From contig OZ241892.1 in NCBI GenBank assembly GCA_965203485.1, positions 192,001 to 256,000 of the forward strand: a stretch of DNA of 64,000 nt. Reading direction: 5' to 3'. This DNA comes from Longimicrobiales bacterium (GTDB taxonomy: Bacteria > Gemmatimonadota > Gemmatimonadetes > Longimicrobiales > Gaopeijiaceae). Shown piece by piece: positions 47,289 to 54,258 of this stretch; within the stretch, counting starts at the first letter, position 1; every line of letters starts with the position of its first letter. Both the position numbers and the translations under genes were made by a program. The notes beneath the pieces were generated by a model, which worked only from the letters and a program-made list of their open reading frames with translations, was not told where the DNA came from and ran no database searches.

Positions 47289-47474
47289 CGGCCGCCGAGT
47301 CAGCGTCGACTGCGCCGCGGCCGCGTGTCCGCCCCCCGACCTCGGCCGCTCTCCTTGCAGCGTGGGCCGCTCGATCGTAGATTCCTGCATTGTGCGTGCG
47401 TCCGTGCAACTCCAACCCACTCGCTCCGGCCGTGTTCCGGCGAGATGATGGACAACCCTAACGCCGAGGCTGCA

Positions 47475-48650
47475 ATGTTCCTCCACGAGGTTATTCTCAG
47501 CAATGTTCTGTCGTTCGGTTCTGAGACTACCCTAGGGATGAAGCCCCTGAACGTCCTCGTCGGACCAAACGGCTCTGGCAAGTCTAACTTCATCGAGGCC
47601 CTTGGGTTGGTACGCGCCGCGCCAACCGACATTCGCGTACCAATCCGAGAAGGGGGAGGCATTGTGGATTGGCTGTGGAGAGGGAAGTGCCGACCCTCGT
47701 CGGCTCGCCTGGAAGTCGTGGTGGACAACCCTGGAAGGCAACAGTCGCTCCGCTATAGTCTGGAGTTTGGGGCAAGCGCCGGGCGCTTCGAGCTATTGAC
47801 CGAAAAACTCGAGAATCAACACCCATATCCTGGCAAGAACGACCCGTACATTTACCTGACCTCCACCGGCGGACGGGCCACGTTGAACTACCGTGACCCC
47901 CACAATGAGCAGCAACGTCGACAACTCCGACCGGAAGATGTCGATTTCGATCAATCCATCCTAGCGCAGAGGAAGGATCCAGATCACTATCCAGAGATCA
48001 CATACTTGGGACGCCAGCTAGGCAAGATGCGTCTGTATCGTGAGTGGACCTTTGGGCGCAACACGCCTCCGAGACTGCCGCAGAAGCCCGACCTTCCCAA
48101 CGACTTTCTCTTGGAAGACGGCAGCAATCTTGGACTCATCCTCAGCCGCTTGGCGTTGGATGTCGAGACGAAGCAAGCCGTGCTGGAGGCGTTGCATCAG
48201 CTATACGACGGCATATCTAACTTTCACGTCGTTGTCCAAAATAACGCCGCCCAGTTGTTCTTGCAGGAAGGCAACATGATGATTCCCGCGACGAGATTGT
48301 CAGACGGCACTCTGAGGTACCTGTGCTTGTTGACCGTGTTGTGCGACCCCGAGCCGCCCCCGCTAGTGTGCTTGGAGGAGCCGGAGCTGGGTCTTCACCC
48401 GGACGTGTTGCCGCAGTTGGCCGACCTTCTGCGCGACGCTTCCCGGCGATGTCAGTTGGTCGTCACCACGCATTCGGACACGTTGGTCGATGCGCTCACT
48501 GAAGACGCGGACGTGGTCGTGGTGTGCGAGAAGCATGACGGCAAGACAACTATGAAGCGGCTGGATCCGGCAAAACTGTCCGATTGGCTGAAGGAATACC
48601 GCTTGGGCCAACTGTGGAGTGCAGGAAAGATCGGGGGGAACAGATGGTGA
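47475..48650 (+). CDS. ABC-type (AAA_21 / AAA_15-like) ATPase
   Basis: GPNGSGKSN, LSDGTLR signature, CLEEPELGLHP, VVTTHS; lower GC than flanks. Confidence 0.92.
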   Translation: MFLHEVILSNVLSFGSETTLGMKPLNVLVGPNGSGKSNFIEALGLVRAAPTDIRVPIREGGGIVDWLWRGKCRPSSARLEVVVDNPGRQQSLRYSLEFGASAGRFELLTEKLENQHPYPGKNDPYIYLTSTGGRATLNYRDPHNEQQRRQLRPEDVDFDQSILAQRKDPDHYPEITYLGRQLGKMRLYREWTFGRNTPPRLPQKPDLPNDFLLEDGSNLGLILSRLALDVETKQAVLEALHQLYDGISNFHVVVQNNAAQLFLQEGNMMIPATRLSDGTLRYLCLLTVLCDPEPPPLVCLEEPELGLHPDVLPQLADLLRDASRRCQLVVTTHSDTLVDALTEDADVVVVCEKHDGKTTMKRLDPAKLSDWLKEYRLGQLWSAGKIGGNRW

Positions 48651-49249
48651 CGGTGTTTGTCGAAGGAGGAGGAGATACACGCGAACTGAAAAGCCGTTGC
48701 CGCAAAGGGTTTAGCGAGTTCTTTCGCCACGCCGGCCTTAAGAACCGAATGCCTCGCGTTGTAGCGTGCGGTGGGCGGGGCAACGCCTACGACAAATTCT
48801 GCCGTAGCTTGGACATTCCGGTGGACGGCCATGTTGCCATCCTGCTCGTCGACAGTGAGGAGCAAGTCAGCCAAGAAGTTGGGCCATGGTCCCACTTGCG
48901 AAAGCGGGATGGGTGGCAGAAGCCGCCGGGTGCCACTGACGACCAGGCGCAACTGATGGTTCAGTGCATGGAGGCGTGGTTCTTGGCGGACAGGGAATGC
49001 TTGGCGAAGGTCTTTGGCAAGGATTTTCGAGCAAAAGCGCTTCCGGGCAGTAAAGACATCGAAGGAATCGCGAAGGAAGACGTGATGGCCGGCCTCAAGA
49101 AAGCGACACGCCGTGGCGGAAAGCTGTACCACAAGGGCCGTCATTCATTCGTCTTGTTGGCGAAGATCGACCCGAAGAAGGTTGCCGACGCCTCGCCACA
49201 CGTAAAGCGACTGCTTGACTGCCTCGACCGGGTGTCGTGCGCGACGTGA
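48644..49249 (+). CDS. DUF4276-family TOPRIM-like protein
   Basis: VFVEGGGD, ACGGR, LLVDSE, MVQCMEAWFLAD, YHKG; overlaps the ATPase 3' end. Confidence 0.85.
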   Translation: MVTVFVEGGGDTRELKSRCRKGFSEFFRHAGLKNRMPRVVACGGRGNAYDKFCRSLDIPVDGHVAILLVDSEEQVSQEVGPWSHLRKRDGWQKPPGATDDQAQLMVQCMEAWFLADRECLAKVFGKDFRAKALPGSKDIEGIAKEDVMAGLKKATRRGGKLYHKGRHSFVLLAKIDPKKVADASPHVKRLLDCLDRVSCAT

Positions 49250-49347: not shown

Positions 49348-49750
49348 TTAGTTGGTGACCAAGGGCACGCCTTCTGCCGAAGCCGCACTTCGGAGTCGGT
49401 TGTCCAGGGTAGCCAGCGGGAGCCGTCGTCGGCCAGCGAGCGCCAAATAGGCGGCGTCATAGGCCGACAGCTTCCGGCGGCGCGCTACTTCCAGGATGTC
49501 CGCGTCCTCGTCGCCTTCGTCGACTGTGATCGGAAGTTGGGCCAAAAAGGCCAGCGTATCGGCTACCTCCCGGGAGTTCTATTCGCCCTCGTCGCTCGGC
49601 AACCAGCAGTGCGTTCAGCATCTCGTATCGCCATATCCTGGGAACGACAGCGCCGGTCCGCACGACTTGTCGCATCACTTCCTCGGTTTCCGGGGTGCCC
49701 TCGTCGGCCAGGACCCAGGACAGCGCGACCGAAGCGTCCAGAACGATCAA
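49348..49750 (-). pseudogene. vapC: VapC PIN-domain toxin, frameshifted near 49578
   Basis: IVLDASVALSW..EMLNAL in one frame, LSAYDAAYLALA..LATLD in another. Confidence 0.85.
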
Positions 49751-50042: not shown

Positions 50043-51530
50043 TTGGTCCCCGTGACCGCCCCCGACCTCATCCGCCGCCTGGTGCGCGAAGCCGTGGCGC
50101 GCCCGCTGACCGCCCCCGGCGCCGAAGCGCTCCCCCGCGCCACCATCGGCGACATCGACCTTGCGGCTTCCGCCTCAACCACCGACGCCGCCATGCGAGC
50201 CGAATGGCGCGTGCTGTCCGCAGCCGTCGCCCGGCGTTGCCTGCTGCTGGCCGACGACCCCAAGCGCCCCGGCCGCCTCCGCGTCCTGGGCCCGGTCACG
50301 CACCAAGGCCCAGTGCGCTCCGTGGACGCCAGCCACCTGGCCAAGTCGCTCGAATCGCTGGCGGACCTGTCGCCCCTGGAAGCGGTGCGCCGGCTGACGG
50401 CCGAGCTGAACCGCGCCGCGGGGAACGGGCTGGCCTTCAACGGCCTCCTCACCCGTCACACGCTGGAATCCCGCTGTCGGCGCGACCCTGCCCGATGGGA
50501 GCGCGCCCGCCGCGCGGTGGCCGACCTCCCGCCCGCGCCGAGCTCGTGGCGCCAGACGTTGTCGGCGCTGGGCTACCGCCTGGACCGCCTTCCGCGACGG
50601 GGATACTTGGCCGTCCACGAAGGCCGGCCGGTGGCGGTCGTGCATCCCAAGAAGACGAGCGCGCTGGCCCGCTTGGACAGCGACGGCCGCCCGCCCGAGG
50701 GACTGCTGGCGGCGGACTGCAAGCAACGAGGCGCTCGCTACGGCATTCTGGCGTTTCGCGGCTACTTCCGTCTGTTCGACATGGAGTCCCCCGGCGGAAC
50801 CCGTCACTGGCTCGAACTGGACGACGACCTGCTGGACGACGACCGGCGCGCCTTCCTGGCGTTGCTGGCGCCCCCGTCCCTGGTCGGCGACGGCTTCGCC
50901 AACCTGCAACAGGAGGCGATCAACTTCGGCGTCCGGCTGCGTGCCCGGCTGGACCGCACGATCCGTCAGGAGGCCCTTCCCGCGCTGGCCGCCGACATGG
51001 AGCACTGGGCCAAGGAGCACGGCCTGGACCTGCACGACGACGCCCAGCGCGACAAGCTGGAGAAGGCCGCGATGACGCTGGGCTTCCGCGCCGTCTTCAT
51101 CCTCTTTGCGGAAGCCGCCGACCATCTGCCGATGAACAACGAATCCTACCGCAAGGCGTCGCTGTCGGAGCTTGTAACCGAGGCCCACGCGACCAAGGGC
51201 AAGCTGAGCCCGGCGTCGTCCGCGCTGTGGAACGGGTTCACGCGGCTGGTCAAGGCGATGCGATCCGGCAACCCGGCGTGGGACGTGCCCGCCTACAACG
51301 GCGCACTCTTCGCGGCCAAGGACTTCGCGGGCGCCGAGCTGCTGGAGCGGATGGAGCTGCGCGCCCCCGAGTTCGGGCGCGTGCTGTCGGCCGTCGGCCA
51401 CGACGCCGAGCAAGGGAGGGGAGTGGACTTCTCGACGCTGGAGATCGCCCACATCGGCCATACCTACGAGTCCCTGCTGGGCCTGCGCCTGTCGCTGGCC
51501 GCCCGCCCGCTCCGCTACGACGCCGCCCGT
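50043..51530 (+). pseudogene. N-terminal fragment of a type IIG / Eco57I-like restriction-modification enzyme
   Basis: FRAVFILFAEA, VPAYNGALF, VDFSTLEIAHIGHTYESLLG; stops before MTase motifs (no GxG or NPPY/W). Confidence 0.7.
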
Positions 51531-51590
51531 AGCGACGCCCCCGTCAGTGGCCGCTCCTCCGCTCTCCGTGCCGAGGACGCCTTCCCGAGG

Positions 51591-51824
51591 CTCCACTGGG
51601 TGATCGTCCGGGGCGAGAGCGGCCACGATGCCCGTCAGATGGCCCCTGAGTGGGCGCGCACCGTCCGGGACCATTGTGCCGCTAGCGGCGTACCGTTCTT
51701 CTTCAAGCAGTGGGGCGGTCGGACCCCGAAGGCGGGTGGCCGGGAACTGGACGGTACGACCCGGGACGGCTTTCCCGTCCCCGACAACACGGTCCTGCTC
51801 GTCGGCAACGCAGCGTTTCCGTAG
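51591..51824 (+). pseudogene. C-terminal fragment of DUF5131 (phage Gp37/Gp68), fused in frame to the RM fragment
   Basis: LHWVIVRGESG..ARQM..W..RDHC..GVPFFFKQWGG..GRELDG. Confidence 0.82.
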
Positions 51825-51962
51825 CGCCCCTCCCGGCCATGCCGCTTGTTGATCCCAGGTGGTGATGTTATCGTGTAGGATACGATGAGTACCATTGGGG
51901 AGAGCGAATGTCACACGAGGTGGCACACACAATCCAAGGGACATTCCAACAGGAGTCGACGA

Positions 51963-52457
51963 ATGAAACGACGAGTATTCTACAGCTTCCACTACCAGCC
52001 GGACAGCTGGCGTGCGAGCCAAGTGCGCAACATGGGTGTCGTTGAGGGCAACCAGCCCGCATCCGACAATGATTGGGAGGCGATCACCGAGGGGGGTGAA
52101 AACGAAATCGAGGACTGGATCGACGATCAGATGCACGGTAGGTCCTGCGTTGTCGTATTGGTCGGCACCAACACGGCAGAGCGAAAATGGATCGACTACG
52201 AGATCAGAAAGGGATGGAAGGACGGCAAGGGCGTGGTCGGGATTCGCGTCCACGGGCTTAGGGACCAGGACCGCCAAGTATCAAGGCCAGGCAAGAATCC
52301 TTTCGCTCACATGTCGATAGGCGACAAATCTTTTTCGTCCATCGTAAAGTGTTACAATCCCGCCGGTTCGACCAGTCAGGATCGCTATGCCTGGATCAAT
52401 GAAGACCTTGTATCGACAATCGAGGAAGCGATACAGATACGCAACGACTACAGCTAA
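51963..52457 (+). CDS. thsB: ThsB-type TIR-domain protein (DUF1863)
   Basis: RRVFYSFHY..DSWRASQVRN, SCVVVLVG, RKWIDYEI (catalytic Glu kept); RBS AGGAG. Confidence 0.88.
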   Translation: MKRRVFYSFHYQPDSWRASQVRNMGVVEGNQPASDNDWEAITEGGENEIEDWIDDQMHGRSCVVVLVGTNTAERKWIDYEIRKGWKDGKGVVGIRVHGLRDQDRQVSRPGKNPFAHMSIGDKSFSSIVKCYNPAGSTSQDRYAWINEDLVSTIEEAIQIRNDYS

Positions 52458-52471
52458 CAGGAAGAACTCCA

Positions 52472-53629
52472 ATGTCGTGCTCCTATGAAGTTGTTCTTCT
52501 GCACCGTGGTCTCGACCAGTTTGCCGATGAGGTTGCTAATGATGTGAATCAGGCGGCAGACGGGGTCTTGGGACGTTCCGGTGTTTTGCGATGTAGCACG
52601 GCACTCCCTCAAGCAAACAACACGGCCCACGTCGTGGTTGTCTACCTGGGCAACAAAGCTGGCCAACGGGATGATGCCATTCGCAGAGCACTGAGTCGAG
52701 CACTCAAGTCACATTTCCCGATTCTTCCAATCGTGCGACGAGAAGATTTTGGTGATATCCATGAGAAGCTTCCGTCAGCTATCTCGCAAGTCAATACGAT
52801 CAACTGGAACGACACCCCGGATCGAGCGGTGACAACTATTCTGGGGATGCTTGGGCTTGTGACGCAAGAGCGCAGGGTGTTTCTGTCATACGTTCGACGC
52901 GATTCAGGCCCAGTGGCGGAACAGCTACACGGGTTGCTCGTGCAGTCCGGCTTCGACGTGTTTTTAGATCGATTCACCGTTCCACCGGGAAGTGACTTCA
53001 GCGAACGAATCGACGACGAGCTGGCCGACAAAGCTTTTGTGGTTCTTTTGGAGAGTCCTGGACTAGCGGAATCCAAGTGGGTCGAACACGAGATTTCATA
53101 CGCTCTACAACATCGAATCGAAATACTGGCTGTCGCATTGCCCAGTGCGAGCGAACCGACTCCATTGATTGACGATGCCTTCCGCATTGACCTTGGGGAA
53201 CAAGATTTCTCGGGTGGCAAGCTCACCGAGAGTGCATCGAATGCGCTTATCGGGAAGATTGAATTTGCCCACGCACGCGCAATTCGGAGACGTCGTGAGC
53301 AGATACTTGGCACGCTTACCGGGAGGCTCGATGAATTTGACCACACTTGGACTCCGATTGGGACATGGACGATTCAGGCTTTGTCGCCTGACAGCGTTTC
53401 CTCGGTGTACCGCGTCACGCCCCGTCGCCCACGATCGCATGATATGTATGCACTTGACATCGAACGGACCAAGGTCAGTTCGCCTAATGCTACCAGCACG
53501 CGGGCATCCGTCGTGCATGGTGGGGGACGCATCGACGAGCGAAAGCAAGCTGTATTGGAGTGGATTGGCCAGGCAACTCACATGGCGGTCAGGTCGATCG
53601 ACACATGGACTCAGGATGTGGCGGCTTAG
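52472..53629 (+). CDS. TIR-domain protein: degenerate TIR-like N-domain, intact TIR, unknown C-domain
   Basis: RVFLSYVRRD, GFDVFLD, SKWVEHEISYA; N-domain VVVVYLG..FPILPIV. Confidence 0.85.
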   Translation: MSCSYEVVLLHRGLDQFADEVANDVNQAADGVLGRSGVLRCSTALPQANNTAHVVVVYLGNKAGQRDDAIRRALSRALKSHFPILPIVRREDFGDIHEKLPSAISQVNTINWNDTPDRAVTTILGMLGLVTQERRVFLSYVRRDSGPVAEQLHGLLVQSGFDVFLDRFTVPPGSDFSERIDDELADKAFVVLLESPGLAESKWVEHEISYALQHRIEILAVALPSASEPTPLIDDAFRIDLGEQDFSGGKLTESASNALIGKIEFAHARAIRRRREQILGTLTGRLDEFDHTWTPIGTWTIQALSPDSVSSVYRVTPRRPRSHDMYALDIERTKVSSPNATSTRASVVHGGGRIDERKQAVLEWIGQATHMAVRSIDTWTQDVAA

Positions 53630-53631
53630 CG

Positions 53632-54258
53632 ATGGATTCCCTTGGGGGGCGCCACGTCTTTCTGTCGGCGAGCTTTCCTTCCGGCGAAAGGGGAGAAGCA
53701 GTGCGGCCGTACGATCCATCAGCCGTCGCCGATGCCGTAACGGCCCTGGTGCGGGCTGTACTATCCCGCGACGGCAGGTTGCTGTTCGGAGGGCATCCTA
53801 CCATTACGCCGCTGGTGCTCGCGATCGCCATGGAGCATCGCTCCAAGCACTCGGTGGACGTCTTCCAGTCGGAATGGTTTCGGGGGCGGGTTACATCGGA
53901 AACCAAGAGGCTGGCAAGCCTTGGCTATGGAGACGTCCATTGGACAGAGAGGCGTGGTGACCTGGATCGCACACTGAGGACGATGCGGCGGCGGATGCTG
54001 AGTTTTGGACAGATCGCCGGGGCGGTGTTCGTGGGTGGGATGGATGGTATCGAAGAGGAGCACCGAATGCTTGGGCACATGCTGCCGGGTGTTCCGAGGA
54101 TACCCGTGCGTGGCCCAGGCGGAGCGGCGGCACGGTTGCAGACGATGGAGGCTGAGGTTCCAGAATACTTGGCGCGACAACTCGATTCGAGAGCCTATCC
54201 GCTCCTTTCGTCGAAGATCGTGGAATACCTGATTGCCTCTGATTCGAGGCCTCGCTAG
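53632..54258 (+). CDS. stand-alone SLOG-family protein (cluster-3-like)
   Basis: VFLSASFP, LLFGGHPTITPLV, MRRRM, AVFVGGMDGIEEE, GPGGAA. Confidence 0.82.
   Translation: MDSLGGRHVFLSASFPSGERGEAVRPYDPSAVADAVTALVRAVLSRDGRLLFGGHPTITPLVLAIAMEHRSKHSVDVFQSEWFRGRVTSETKRLASLGYGDVHWTERRGDLDRTLRTMRRRMLSFGQIAGAVFVGGMDGIEEEHRMLGHMLPGVPRIPVRGPGGAAARLQTMEAEVPEYLARQLDSRAYPLLSSKIVEYLIASDSRPR

Follow-up and report, generated by a model that had tools for sequence, protein, structure and literature searches.

What delivers the attack in a Thoeris-like operon whose three products match no Sir2, Macro or caspase family of Pfam or PADLOC? Such an operon lies in a 64,000-nucleotide stretch (hereafter the window) of a Longimicrobiales bacterium genome (GenBank assembly GCA_965203485.1, contig OZ241892.1, positions 192,001 to 256,000). 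An earlier note on this DNA had described it as a compact operon of a ThsB TIR gene, a TIR-TIR-X gene and a stand-alone SLOG gene without a recognisable effector, and had put it forward as the window's best candidate for an undescribed system. We find that it is almost certainly a three-gene member of type III Thoeris, with one ThsB-type TIR and a ThcB4-ThcA core, and we propose that ThcA is a signal receptor that controls a second TIR, in ThcB4. The features to which we refer are the following.

51963..52457, plus strand: ThsB-type small TIR protein of 164 amino acids (aa), motif WIDYE, catalytic Glu80 (codon 52200-52202); the variable part of the system
52472..53629, plus strand: ThcB4, 385 aa, TIR-like / TIR / NucS-like, motif WVEHE; core component
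52472..52861, plus strand: N-terminal TIR-like domain of ThcB4, aa 1-130, without a conserved catalytic Glu
52862..53287, plus strand: central TIR of ThcB4, aa 131-272, catalytic Glu207 (codon 53090-53092); predicted NADase
53288..53626, plus strand: C-terminal domain of ThcB4 with a NucS-like / PD-(D/E)xK fold, aa 273-385; predicted pseudo-nuclease
53632..54258, plus strand: ThcA (ThsD), stand-alone SLOG cluster3 protein, 208 aa; predicted signal receptor and ThcB4 partner
Pocket residues of ThcA, from invariant columns and the mapping of ThsA residues: S14, H55/P56, Q79, R119, G139, E143
51951..54236, no strand assigned: cassette common to the window and its relative L008 (blastn, 79% DNA identity), with different flanking genes

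Type III Thoeris, for which van den Berg et al. (2024, Cell Host Microbe 32:1427) is cited as the founding paper, comprises multiple TIR proteins and a SLOG effector, renamed ThsD, and its signalling "remained uncharacterized" (Yirmiya et al., 10.64898/2025.12.03.692087). Gene 2 scored 235.6 bits against the NCBIfam model of type III ThcB4 (NF058526, aligned over 1-368 of its 375 positions), only narrowly above the cut-off of 220 bits, and gene 3 scored 160.8 bits against the model of type III ThcA (NF058525, cut-off 110 bits). Because both genes exceed the cut-offs of curated equivalog models, we assign the locus to type III Thoeris, and these matches to a described system rule out an undescribed one. 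The operon encodes two TIR proteins with a catalytic Glu, in keeping with the multiple TIRs of type III.

Family matches of all three genes agree with the Thoeris-like TIR/SLOG operon of the earlier note. Gene 1 matched ThsB_TIR of Pfam (PF08937, E 2.5e-27), and the catalytic Glu is kept in 26/26 aligned small TIRs, gene 1 among them; among the NCBIfam models, neither gene 1 nor the small TIRs of relatives L035 and L036 had a match. Gene 2 matched TIR_2 (PF13676, E 8.8e-21) and gene 3 matched SLOG cluster3 (PF18180, E 3.4e-32). PADLOC 2.0.0 (2023), to which the note had pointed as a check, recognised gene 1 as ThsB (PDLC00433, E 8e-70) and had no model for gene 3; this release is older than type III, so the missing match is no sign of novelty. 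Searches for SIR2_2 and STALD found nothing in the three proteins or elsewhere in the window's genome, which is 95% complete and holds the SLOG cluster3 gene in single copy. The STALD search, which recovers ThsA elsewhere, also found nothing across 301 genomes of one phylum. For genes 2 and 3, structure prediction gave soluble alpha/beta folds.

All three open reading frames (ORFs) are intact and tightly spaced, with gaps of 14 nt between genes 1 and 2 and 2 nt between genes 2 and 3, and their GC contents (0.543, 0.546 and 0.614, in gene order) lie below the 0.693 of the genome, all as the note had seen. Longer starts are possible for genes 1 and 3; homologue alignments begin at the ATGs adopted here. 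The triad is 79% identical to L008 across 2,291 nt, and divergence at codon positions 1, 2 and 3 is 0.13-0.18, 0.07-0.14 and 0.35-0.38. Since substitutions concentrate at third positions, the triad is under purifying selection and reflects neither chance nor decay. The L008 genome, labelled Longimicrobiales, is the nearest relative of the locus's genus. Among 61 genomes of the lineage, ThcB4 exceeded its cut-off in two: the window's own and G001, in which the ORFs of locus L039 are those of L008. The triad is a mobile cassette under selection, with a patchy distribution. A search for a sigma-70-like promoter at the locus found none, and terminator-like matches were near chance (4 versus 2.1 ± 1.6).

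ThcB4 and ThcA form a fixed core, while the small TIRs vary like interchangeable ThsB sensors. Searching with ThcA located 34 genome loci. Of these, 29 carry ThcB4 sequence upstream of ThcA, three of the 29 being interrupted (L013, L017 and L019), and five carry none. A search with ThcB4 alone yielded 44 metagenome loci, of which 11 with less than 450 nt downstream were dropped; ThcA was present in 31 of the remaining 33, several of them near-duplicates and one beside a second ThcB4 copy. In one further order, ThcA occurred in 4/401 genomes, and ThcB4 stood beside it at three of those four loci. Over 325 non-independent pairs, the pairwise identities of the two proteins correlate (Spearman 0.85). 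Their trees, of which that of ThcA is a quick one, agree across phyla. Fused ThcB4-ThcA proteins were found in L006 (624 aa) and L030 (552 aa) and as P0068 (593 aa) and P0318 (607 aa), in which the TIR comes first and the SLOG last, the order seen in the SIR2-SLOG protein ThsA. At least one extra TIR gene, in varying number and position, lies near the core in 14 of the 25 genome loci scanned; plasmid loci have up to four small TIRs. The same triad recurs in L008, L012, L029 and the plasmid locus L036. No Sir2, Macro or caspase family was present in the 158 of 245 candidate neighbour ORFs that were scanned at 26 loci, the other 87 being mostly short or overlapping frames.

Individual relatives have further genes around the core. 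In L035 (723-7397) and L063 (458-7464), it lies inside clusters of several TIR genes that also encode a patatin phospholipase. The annotation of this protein is CBASS phospholipase at both loci, and Pfam makes that of L035 a SLOG cluster2-patatin; such clusters are perhaps a second Thoeris type that draws on the same sensors. A small hydrophobic, effector-like protein is encoded near the core of L009. In the actinobacterial L022 (8105-10105, minus strand) and L025 (3957-5802, plus strand), the place of ThsB is taken by a small nucleoside-deoxyribosyltransferase/TIR-like gene, and the core also adjoins a TPR-S / MAP3K_TRAF_bd-like protein. C-terminal extensions of ThcA include a LuxR helix-turn-helix fusion in P0205 and tails of about 170 aa in L015 (1731-2879, from an Asgard archaeon) and about 100 aa in L064 (4539-5405, from an Acidithiobacillus plasmid). 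On two unrelated plasmids (L063, 6997-9890; L066, 796-3689), genes for a TIR, a hypothetical protein, a MazG-like pyrophosphohydrolase and a uracil-DNA glycosylase adjoin the core. In L023 (472-2139 and 4403-5659), the core has a TIR-FGE-sulfatase-domain protein on one side and, on the other, a further long TIR protein that is followed by a gene for a MoxR-like ATPase.

The structure model of ThcB4 (predicted local distance difference test score (pLDDT) 93.7, predicted template modelling score 0.87) contains three domains. In the central TIR, Glu207 is invariant, both in 145/145 aligned homologues and in 114/114 members of the P. aeruginosa clade. The best fold match was the SARM1 TIR (Z 15.8, root-mean-square deviation (rmsd) 2.3, 124 aligned), and SARM1, SPARTA and AbTir (Z 15-16) ranked above ThsB structures (Z 12.8-13.0); sequence searches of the PDB with ThcB4 returned generic TIRs only. 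By its modelled fold, the central TIR appears closest to NAD-consuming TIRs rather than to ThsB, and we predict that it is an NADase. A hidden Markov model of the N-terminal domain also matched the central TIR of the same proteins, the two domains aligned weakly (hhalign prob 21%, E 0.001), and Atlas neighbours of the N-terminal domain include TIR_2 clusters at 0.90-0.91. Match lists for the whole protein were filled by the central TIR, and the assignment of the N-terminal domain as a TIR is therefore moderate. Glu occupies the catalytic-equivalent column of this domain in only 11/145 homologues, and residues 1-130 are probably an inactive scaffold or regulatory TIR.

The C-terminal domain (residues 274-378) matched the fold of NucS (2vld; Z 10.6, rmsd 2.9, 99 aligned) and of AF1548 (Z 9.9); the Atlas lead was 0.77 only. 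Four of four real NucS proteins, used as controls, have D...ExK...QxxxY. At the end of strand 3, where ExK would be expected, ThcB4 has T316-P317-R318, and the P. aeruginosa clade has Y-P-T-V-G. A window of 12-13 columns over strand 3 held (D/E)xK in 0/145 homologues and 0/114 members of the P. aeruginosa clade, a test that is independent of register; an acidic residue occupied the expected first catalytic position in 12/145 and 1/114, respectively. We base the link to NucS on the fold search, with the register set by hand; a profile alignment to four NucS proteins gave no significant match (prob 0.1 or less). Since the (D/E)xK motif is missing in both clades examined, we take the NucS-like domain of each to be a probable pseudo-nuclease. 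Thus, the two TIRs of the earlier TIR-TIR-X description stand, the N-terminal one as TIR-like, and the X proves to be a recognisable NucS-like restriction-endonuclease fold; "no recognisable effector" holds in that this domain has no nuclease catalytic residues and fails in that the domain is there.

For ThcA (model pLDDT 96.3), the closest fold was the SLOG domain of BcThsA bound to the cyclic ADP-ribose isomer 3′cADPR (7uxs; Z 15.3, rmsd 2.9, 166 aligned), with TM1055 next and then the LOG phosphoribohydrolase 5ajt (Z 13.8, rmsd 3.4, 173 aligned). Sequence searches of the PDB found no relative of ThcA, and the fold searches listed no type III structure. The ThsA pocket comprises G289, S290, L326, Q359, R371, K388, G399 and E403 (Manik et al., 10.1101/2022.05.07.491051). 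Mapping through four ThsA proteins (hhalign prob 90.7) placed ThcA A13, S14 (89/91), P56 (90/91), and R119, G139 and E143 (91/91 each) at pocket positions; S14, R119, G139 and E143 correspond to ThsA S290, R371, G399 and E403, respectively. R119 and E143, the latter within GGxxGxxxE143, are joined by an additional invariant residue, H55. Plasmid ThcA and ThcA from the order survey keep the pocket residues as well, the exceptions being L120, at its N-terminal positions, and a few single changes. This conservation makes it very probable that ThcA binds an ADP-ribose (ADPR)-type nucleotide.

Complex prediction of the SLOG protein with the second TIR protein, which the earlier note had proposed, gave a score of 0.80 (0.77-0.84 between runs), compared to 0.00 for the best of three controls, with contact agreement of at least 79% and partner pLDDT of at least 86. 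In a benchmark, 116/157 solved complexes and 2/215 mismatches reached that mark, counts that apply only roughly to the alignments used here. PDB sequence and fold searches found no similar complex. On the ThcB4 side, the modelled interface consists of the Glu207 helix (202-218) and the connector helix (266-285) that links the TIR to the C-terminal domain; on the ThcA side, it consists of residues 14-18, 26-45, 55-69 and 187-194, which include the pocket-lining S14 and H55-T57. Conservation of the ThcA interface is 0.77, compared to a protein average of 0.61. The modelling supports a ThcB4-ThcA complex.

A mechanism that we favour, at a probability of roughly 0.5, is a split type I Thoeris in which ThsB makes the signal, ThcA is the receptor and the ThcB4 TIR is the NADase. 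By analogy with type I, the small TIR would recognise a phage protein and turn NAD+ into an ADP-ribose isomer. As pocket conservation suggests, this isomer would be bound by ThcA in its ThsA-like SLOG pocket. In the model, ThcA is docked on ThcB4 at the Glu207 helix and the helix connecting TIR and C-terminal domain; the ligand could alter this contact such that the central TIR assembles and hydrolyses NAD+, and phage replication stalls. The Glu-less TIR-like domain and the dead NucS-like domain would be non-catalytic scaffold, autoinhibitory or nucleic-acid-binding modules. This is the sequence that the earlier note had sketched, with ThsB as sensor, SLOG as binder of the signal and the second TIR protein as effector, and it stays at the level of a proposal. 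For type III in general, we suggest tentatively that the effector is a two-chain TIR-SLOG enzyme, ThcB4-ThcA, regulated by the dead TIR and the dead NucS fold, and is neither a nuclease nor the SLOG protein as such.

Several observations weigh against the split type I mechanism. A fold preference of 2-3 Z units cannot separate an NAD-depleting from a signalling TIR. Conservation of the ThcB4 interface is 0.40 versus an average of 0.41 in the wide alignment, and 0.65 versus 0.59 in the close one. ThcA has Met at the position of ThsA K388, and the mapping of Q359 is uncertain, though ThcA Q79 is invariant; because K388 has no counterpart and Q359 no certain one, the ligand of ThcA may differ from that of ThsA. 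R119 and E143 presumably also fit the LOG hydrolase motif and so cannot separate binding from catalysis. Some fusions may have arisen from lost stop codons between tightly coupled genes. Yirmiya et al. regard the SLOG protein itself, ThsD, as the effector. Two further points carry the most weight: at 11 of the 25 genome loci, no small TIR was detectable near the core, and at these a separate signal-maker is either unneeded or missed; and type III has been reported to act without abortive infection (Englert et al., 10.64898/2026.01.22.701046).

One alternative, which we judge unlikely, is that ThcA is a brake: ThcB4 and ThcA would stand guard by themselves, with ThcA keeping the TIR of ThcB4 inactive and small TIRs as optional additions. 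ThcA would perhaps be loaded with a constitutive ADPR isomer, and phage would release the TIR by binding the pseudo-nuclease domain or removing the ligand. A brake would suit the modelled ThcA footprint, which covers the Glu207 helix (residues 202-218), as well as the 11 genome loci and several metagenome loci with more than 4 kb on both sides (for example L093 and L111) that have the core without a detectable small TIR. However, the fusions suit a receptor-enzyme unit better than a releasable inhibitor, and extra TIRs are present at 14 of 25 loci, with the catalytic Glu kept in the 26 small TIRs aligned.

It is also improbable, in our estimate, that ThcA is a catalytic effector, as the ThsD reading would have it. 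Here, ThcA would be a LOG-like N-glycosidase, switched on by ThcB4 or its product, that cleaves nucleotides or makes a toxic or inhibitory product from the signal, with ThcB4 as the signal synthase or amplifier. The fold match to 5ajt and the invariant R119, GGxxGxxxE143 and H55 are consistent with such an enzyme, N-glycosidases occur beside sensors among SLOG domains (PMC9503650), and the type III effector is the SLOG protein in the account of Yirmiya et al. Yet the best fold match is the SLOG of ThsA, which is non-catalytic and shares the Arg and Glu, and ThcA carries no conserved fused output domain.

Slightly poorer odds attach to a published hypothesis, that type III activity needs a NucS nuclease domain (Englert et al.), which in ThcB4 would mean a signal-activated nuclease that attacks phage DNA and spares the cell. 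The NucS domain that these authors mean may be the C-terminal domain of ThcB4, for which our register is hand-set. The NucS fold match and the reported lack of abortive infection favour this hypothesis, as do polar residues conserved within each clade (R318, D324 and H349 here; several His and Asp in the P. aeruginosa clade). These polar residues do not coincide between clades, whereas a Trp does, in an alignment that is itself weak (prob 31%), and (D/E)xK is absent from both clades while all four NucS controls have the motif.

Last, the idea, also raised in the earlier note, that the three genes are what is left, without function, of a larger multi-TIR locus, or that their effector is encoded elsewhere, is very improbable: it could draw on the adjoining decayed DNA (a chimeric type IIG restriction/DUF5131 fragment), the few interrupted relatives and the effector-like genes near others (the SLOG2-patatin of L035, the annotated patatin of L063 and the hydrophobic protein of L009), but the three intact frames are under purifying selection, the same triad recurs at four other loci, the neighbourhood survey, with 158 ORFs scanned, shows no extra effector conserved beside the core, and the genome, 95% complete, yields a single SLOG cluster3 gene and nothing for SIR2_2 or STALD.

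How does the locus compare with known systems? With other type III Thoeris, it shares a stand-alone SLOG cluster3 protein, a full-length ThcB4 directly upstream of ThcA, several TIR proteins and a NucS-like domain (a type III feature according to Englert et al.). It differs in having only one small TIR and a ThcB4 from a clade apart from the proteobacterial plasmid and P. aeruginosa group (27% identity to P0437, a P. aeruginosa protein of that group). With type I (a ThsB TIR and the SIR2-SLOG protein ThsA, signalling through 3′cADPR), it shares a ThsB-family TIR with catalytic Glu80, a ThcA fold that has the BcThsA SLOG as its best match and retains most of the pocket residues and, under the split type I mechanism, a similar mode of working. 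In contrast to type I, it has no SIR2, its SLOG is cluster3 rather than STALD and a separate protein with no counterpart of K388, and the NADase that we propose, a TIR, belongs to a different polypeptide. It differs from types II and IV in that neither a transmembrane-Macro nor a caspase family matched the three proteins in Pfam or PADLOC.

Among TIR effectors that deplete NAD+, SARM1, the SPARTA TIR-APAZ and AbTir have the folds closest to the central TIR and share its invariant catalytic Glu; Yirmiya et al. cite the TIRs of CBASS and Pycsar as further members. Unlike these, the locus has no SAM/ARM, APAZ, SAVED or STING sensor, and its receptor would be a SLOG in trans. ThcB4 residues 274-378 share their fold with NucS/EndoMS and PD-(D/E)xK nucleases and differ from NucS/EndoMS in having no D...(D/E)xK, no NucS N-terminal domain and no significant profile alignment. 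LOG phosphoribohydrolases share the SLOG fold and, presumably, the conserved Arg and GGxxGxxxE with ThcA, which is only about 14% identical to them, has a GGHPT motif and is genomically tied to TIR genes. In the literature searched, which left out most subscription journals, type III received passing mentions and no paper on its mechanism was found; its signalling is described as uncharacterised in work dated December 2025 to April 2026. The type III SLOG is noted as distinct (PMC13276650), and TadIII-1 is a phage inhibitor of type III (PMC13243611, PMC12390725, PMC13513902) whose action is unknown according to PMC13243611. Passages of 10.1101/2024.10.24.620036, 10.1101/2025.02.20.638879 and PMC13434031 added nothing mechanistic on type III.

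Other defence-type genes lie near the triad and elsewhere in the genome. In the window, 2.7 kb upstream of the triad, a low-GC pair of genes for an AAA_21 ATPase and a DUF4276 protein (47445-49249, plus strand) matches PADLOC HEC-01A/B (E 2e-168 and 1e-74) and is a second defence-type system. Between this pair and the triad, an ORF at 50043-51824 (plus strand) begins as a fragment resembling a type IIG restriction-methylase, continues into the C-terminal end of DUF5131 and looks like a decayed chimera. In L008, a complete DUF5131 gene lies on the opposite side of the cassette. Frames at about 49457-49750 (minus strand) resemble, by eye, a split PIN/VapC-like toxin fragment, and the segments scanned there had no Pfam match. 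A second ThsB-like TIR of the genome (L058:2613-4427, G000:C1 ~2667100-2668900) is preceded by an uncharacterised gene and followed by an Nmad2 gene that is shortened beside a transposase-like ORF. At L059:3358-6010 (G000:C1 ~3498350-3501000), two overlapping ORFs next to a helicase gene together encode a TIR and a STAND-like NTPase, perhaps a TIR-nSTAND4 protein broken by a frameshift.

The locus represents a known system and no new one, and its value is that of a small, intact test case for the attack step of type III Thoeris. Our predictions, which are a ThcB4-ThcA complex, a pseudo-nuclease in place of a NucS nuclease and Glu207 as the residue that delivers the attack, depart from the two readings in print, of the SLOG protein as effector and of the NucS domain as effector. 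If the split type I mechanism is true, the signal of one TIR would switch another TIR via a SLOG receptor in trans, and these three genes would make up the smallest split TIR-SLOG system that is complete with its signal. A TIR-to-SLOG-to-TIR circuit would then be added to bacterial NAD signalling.

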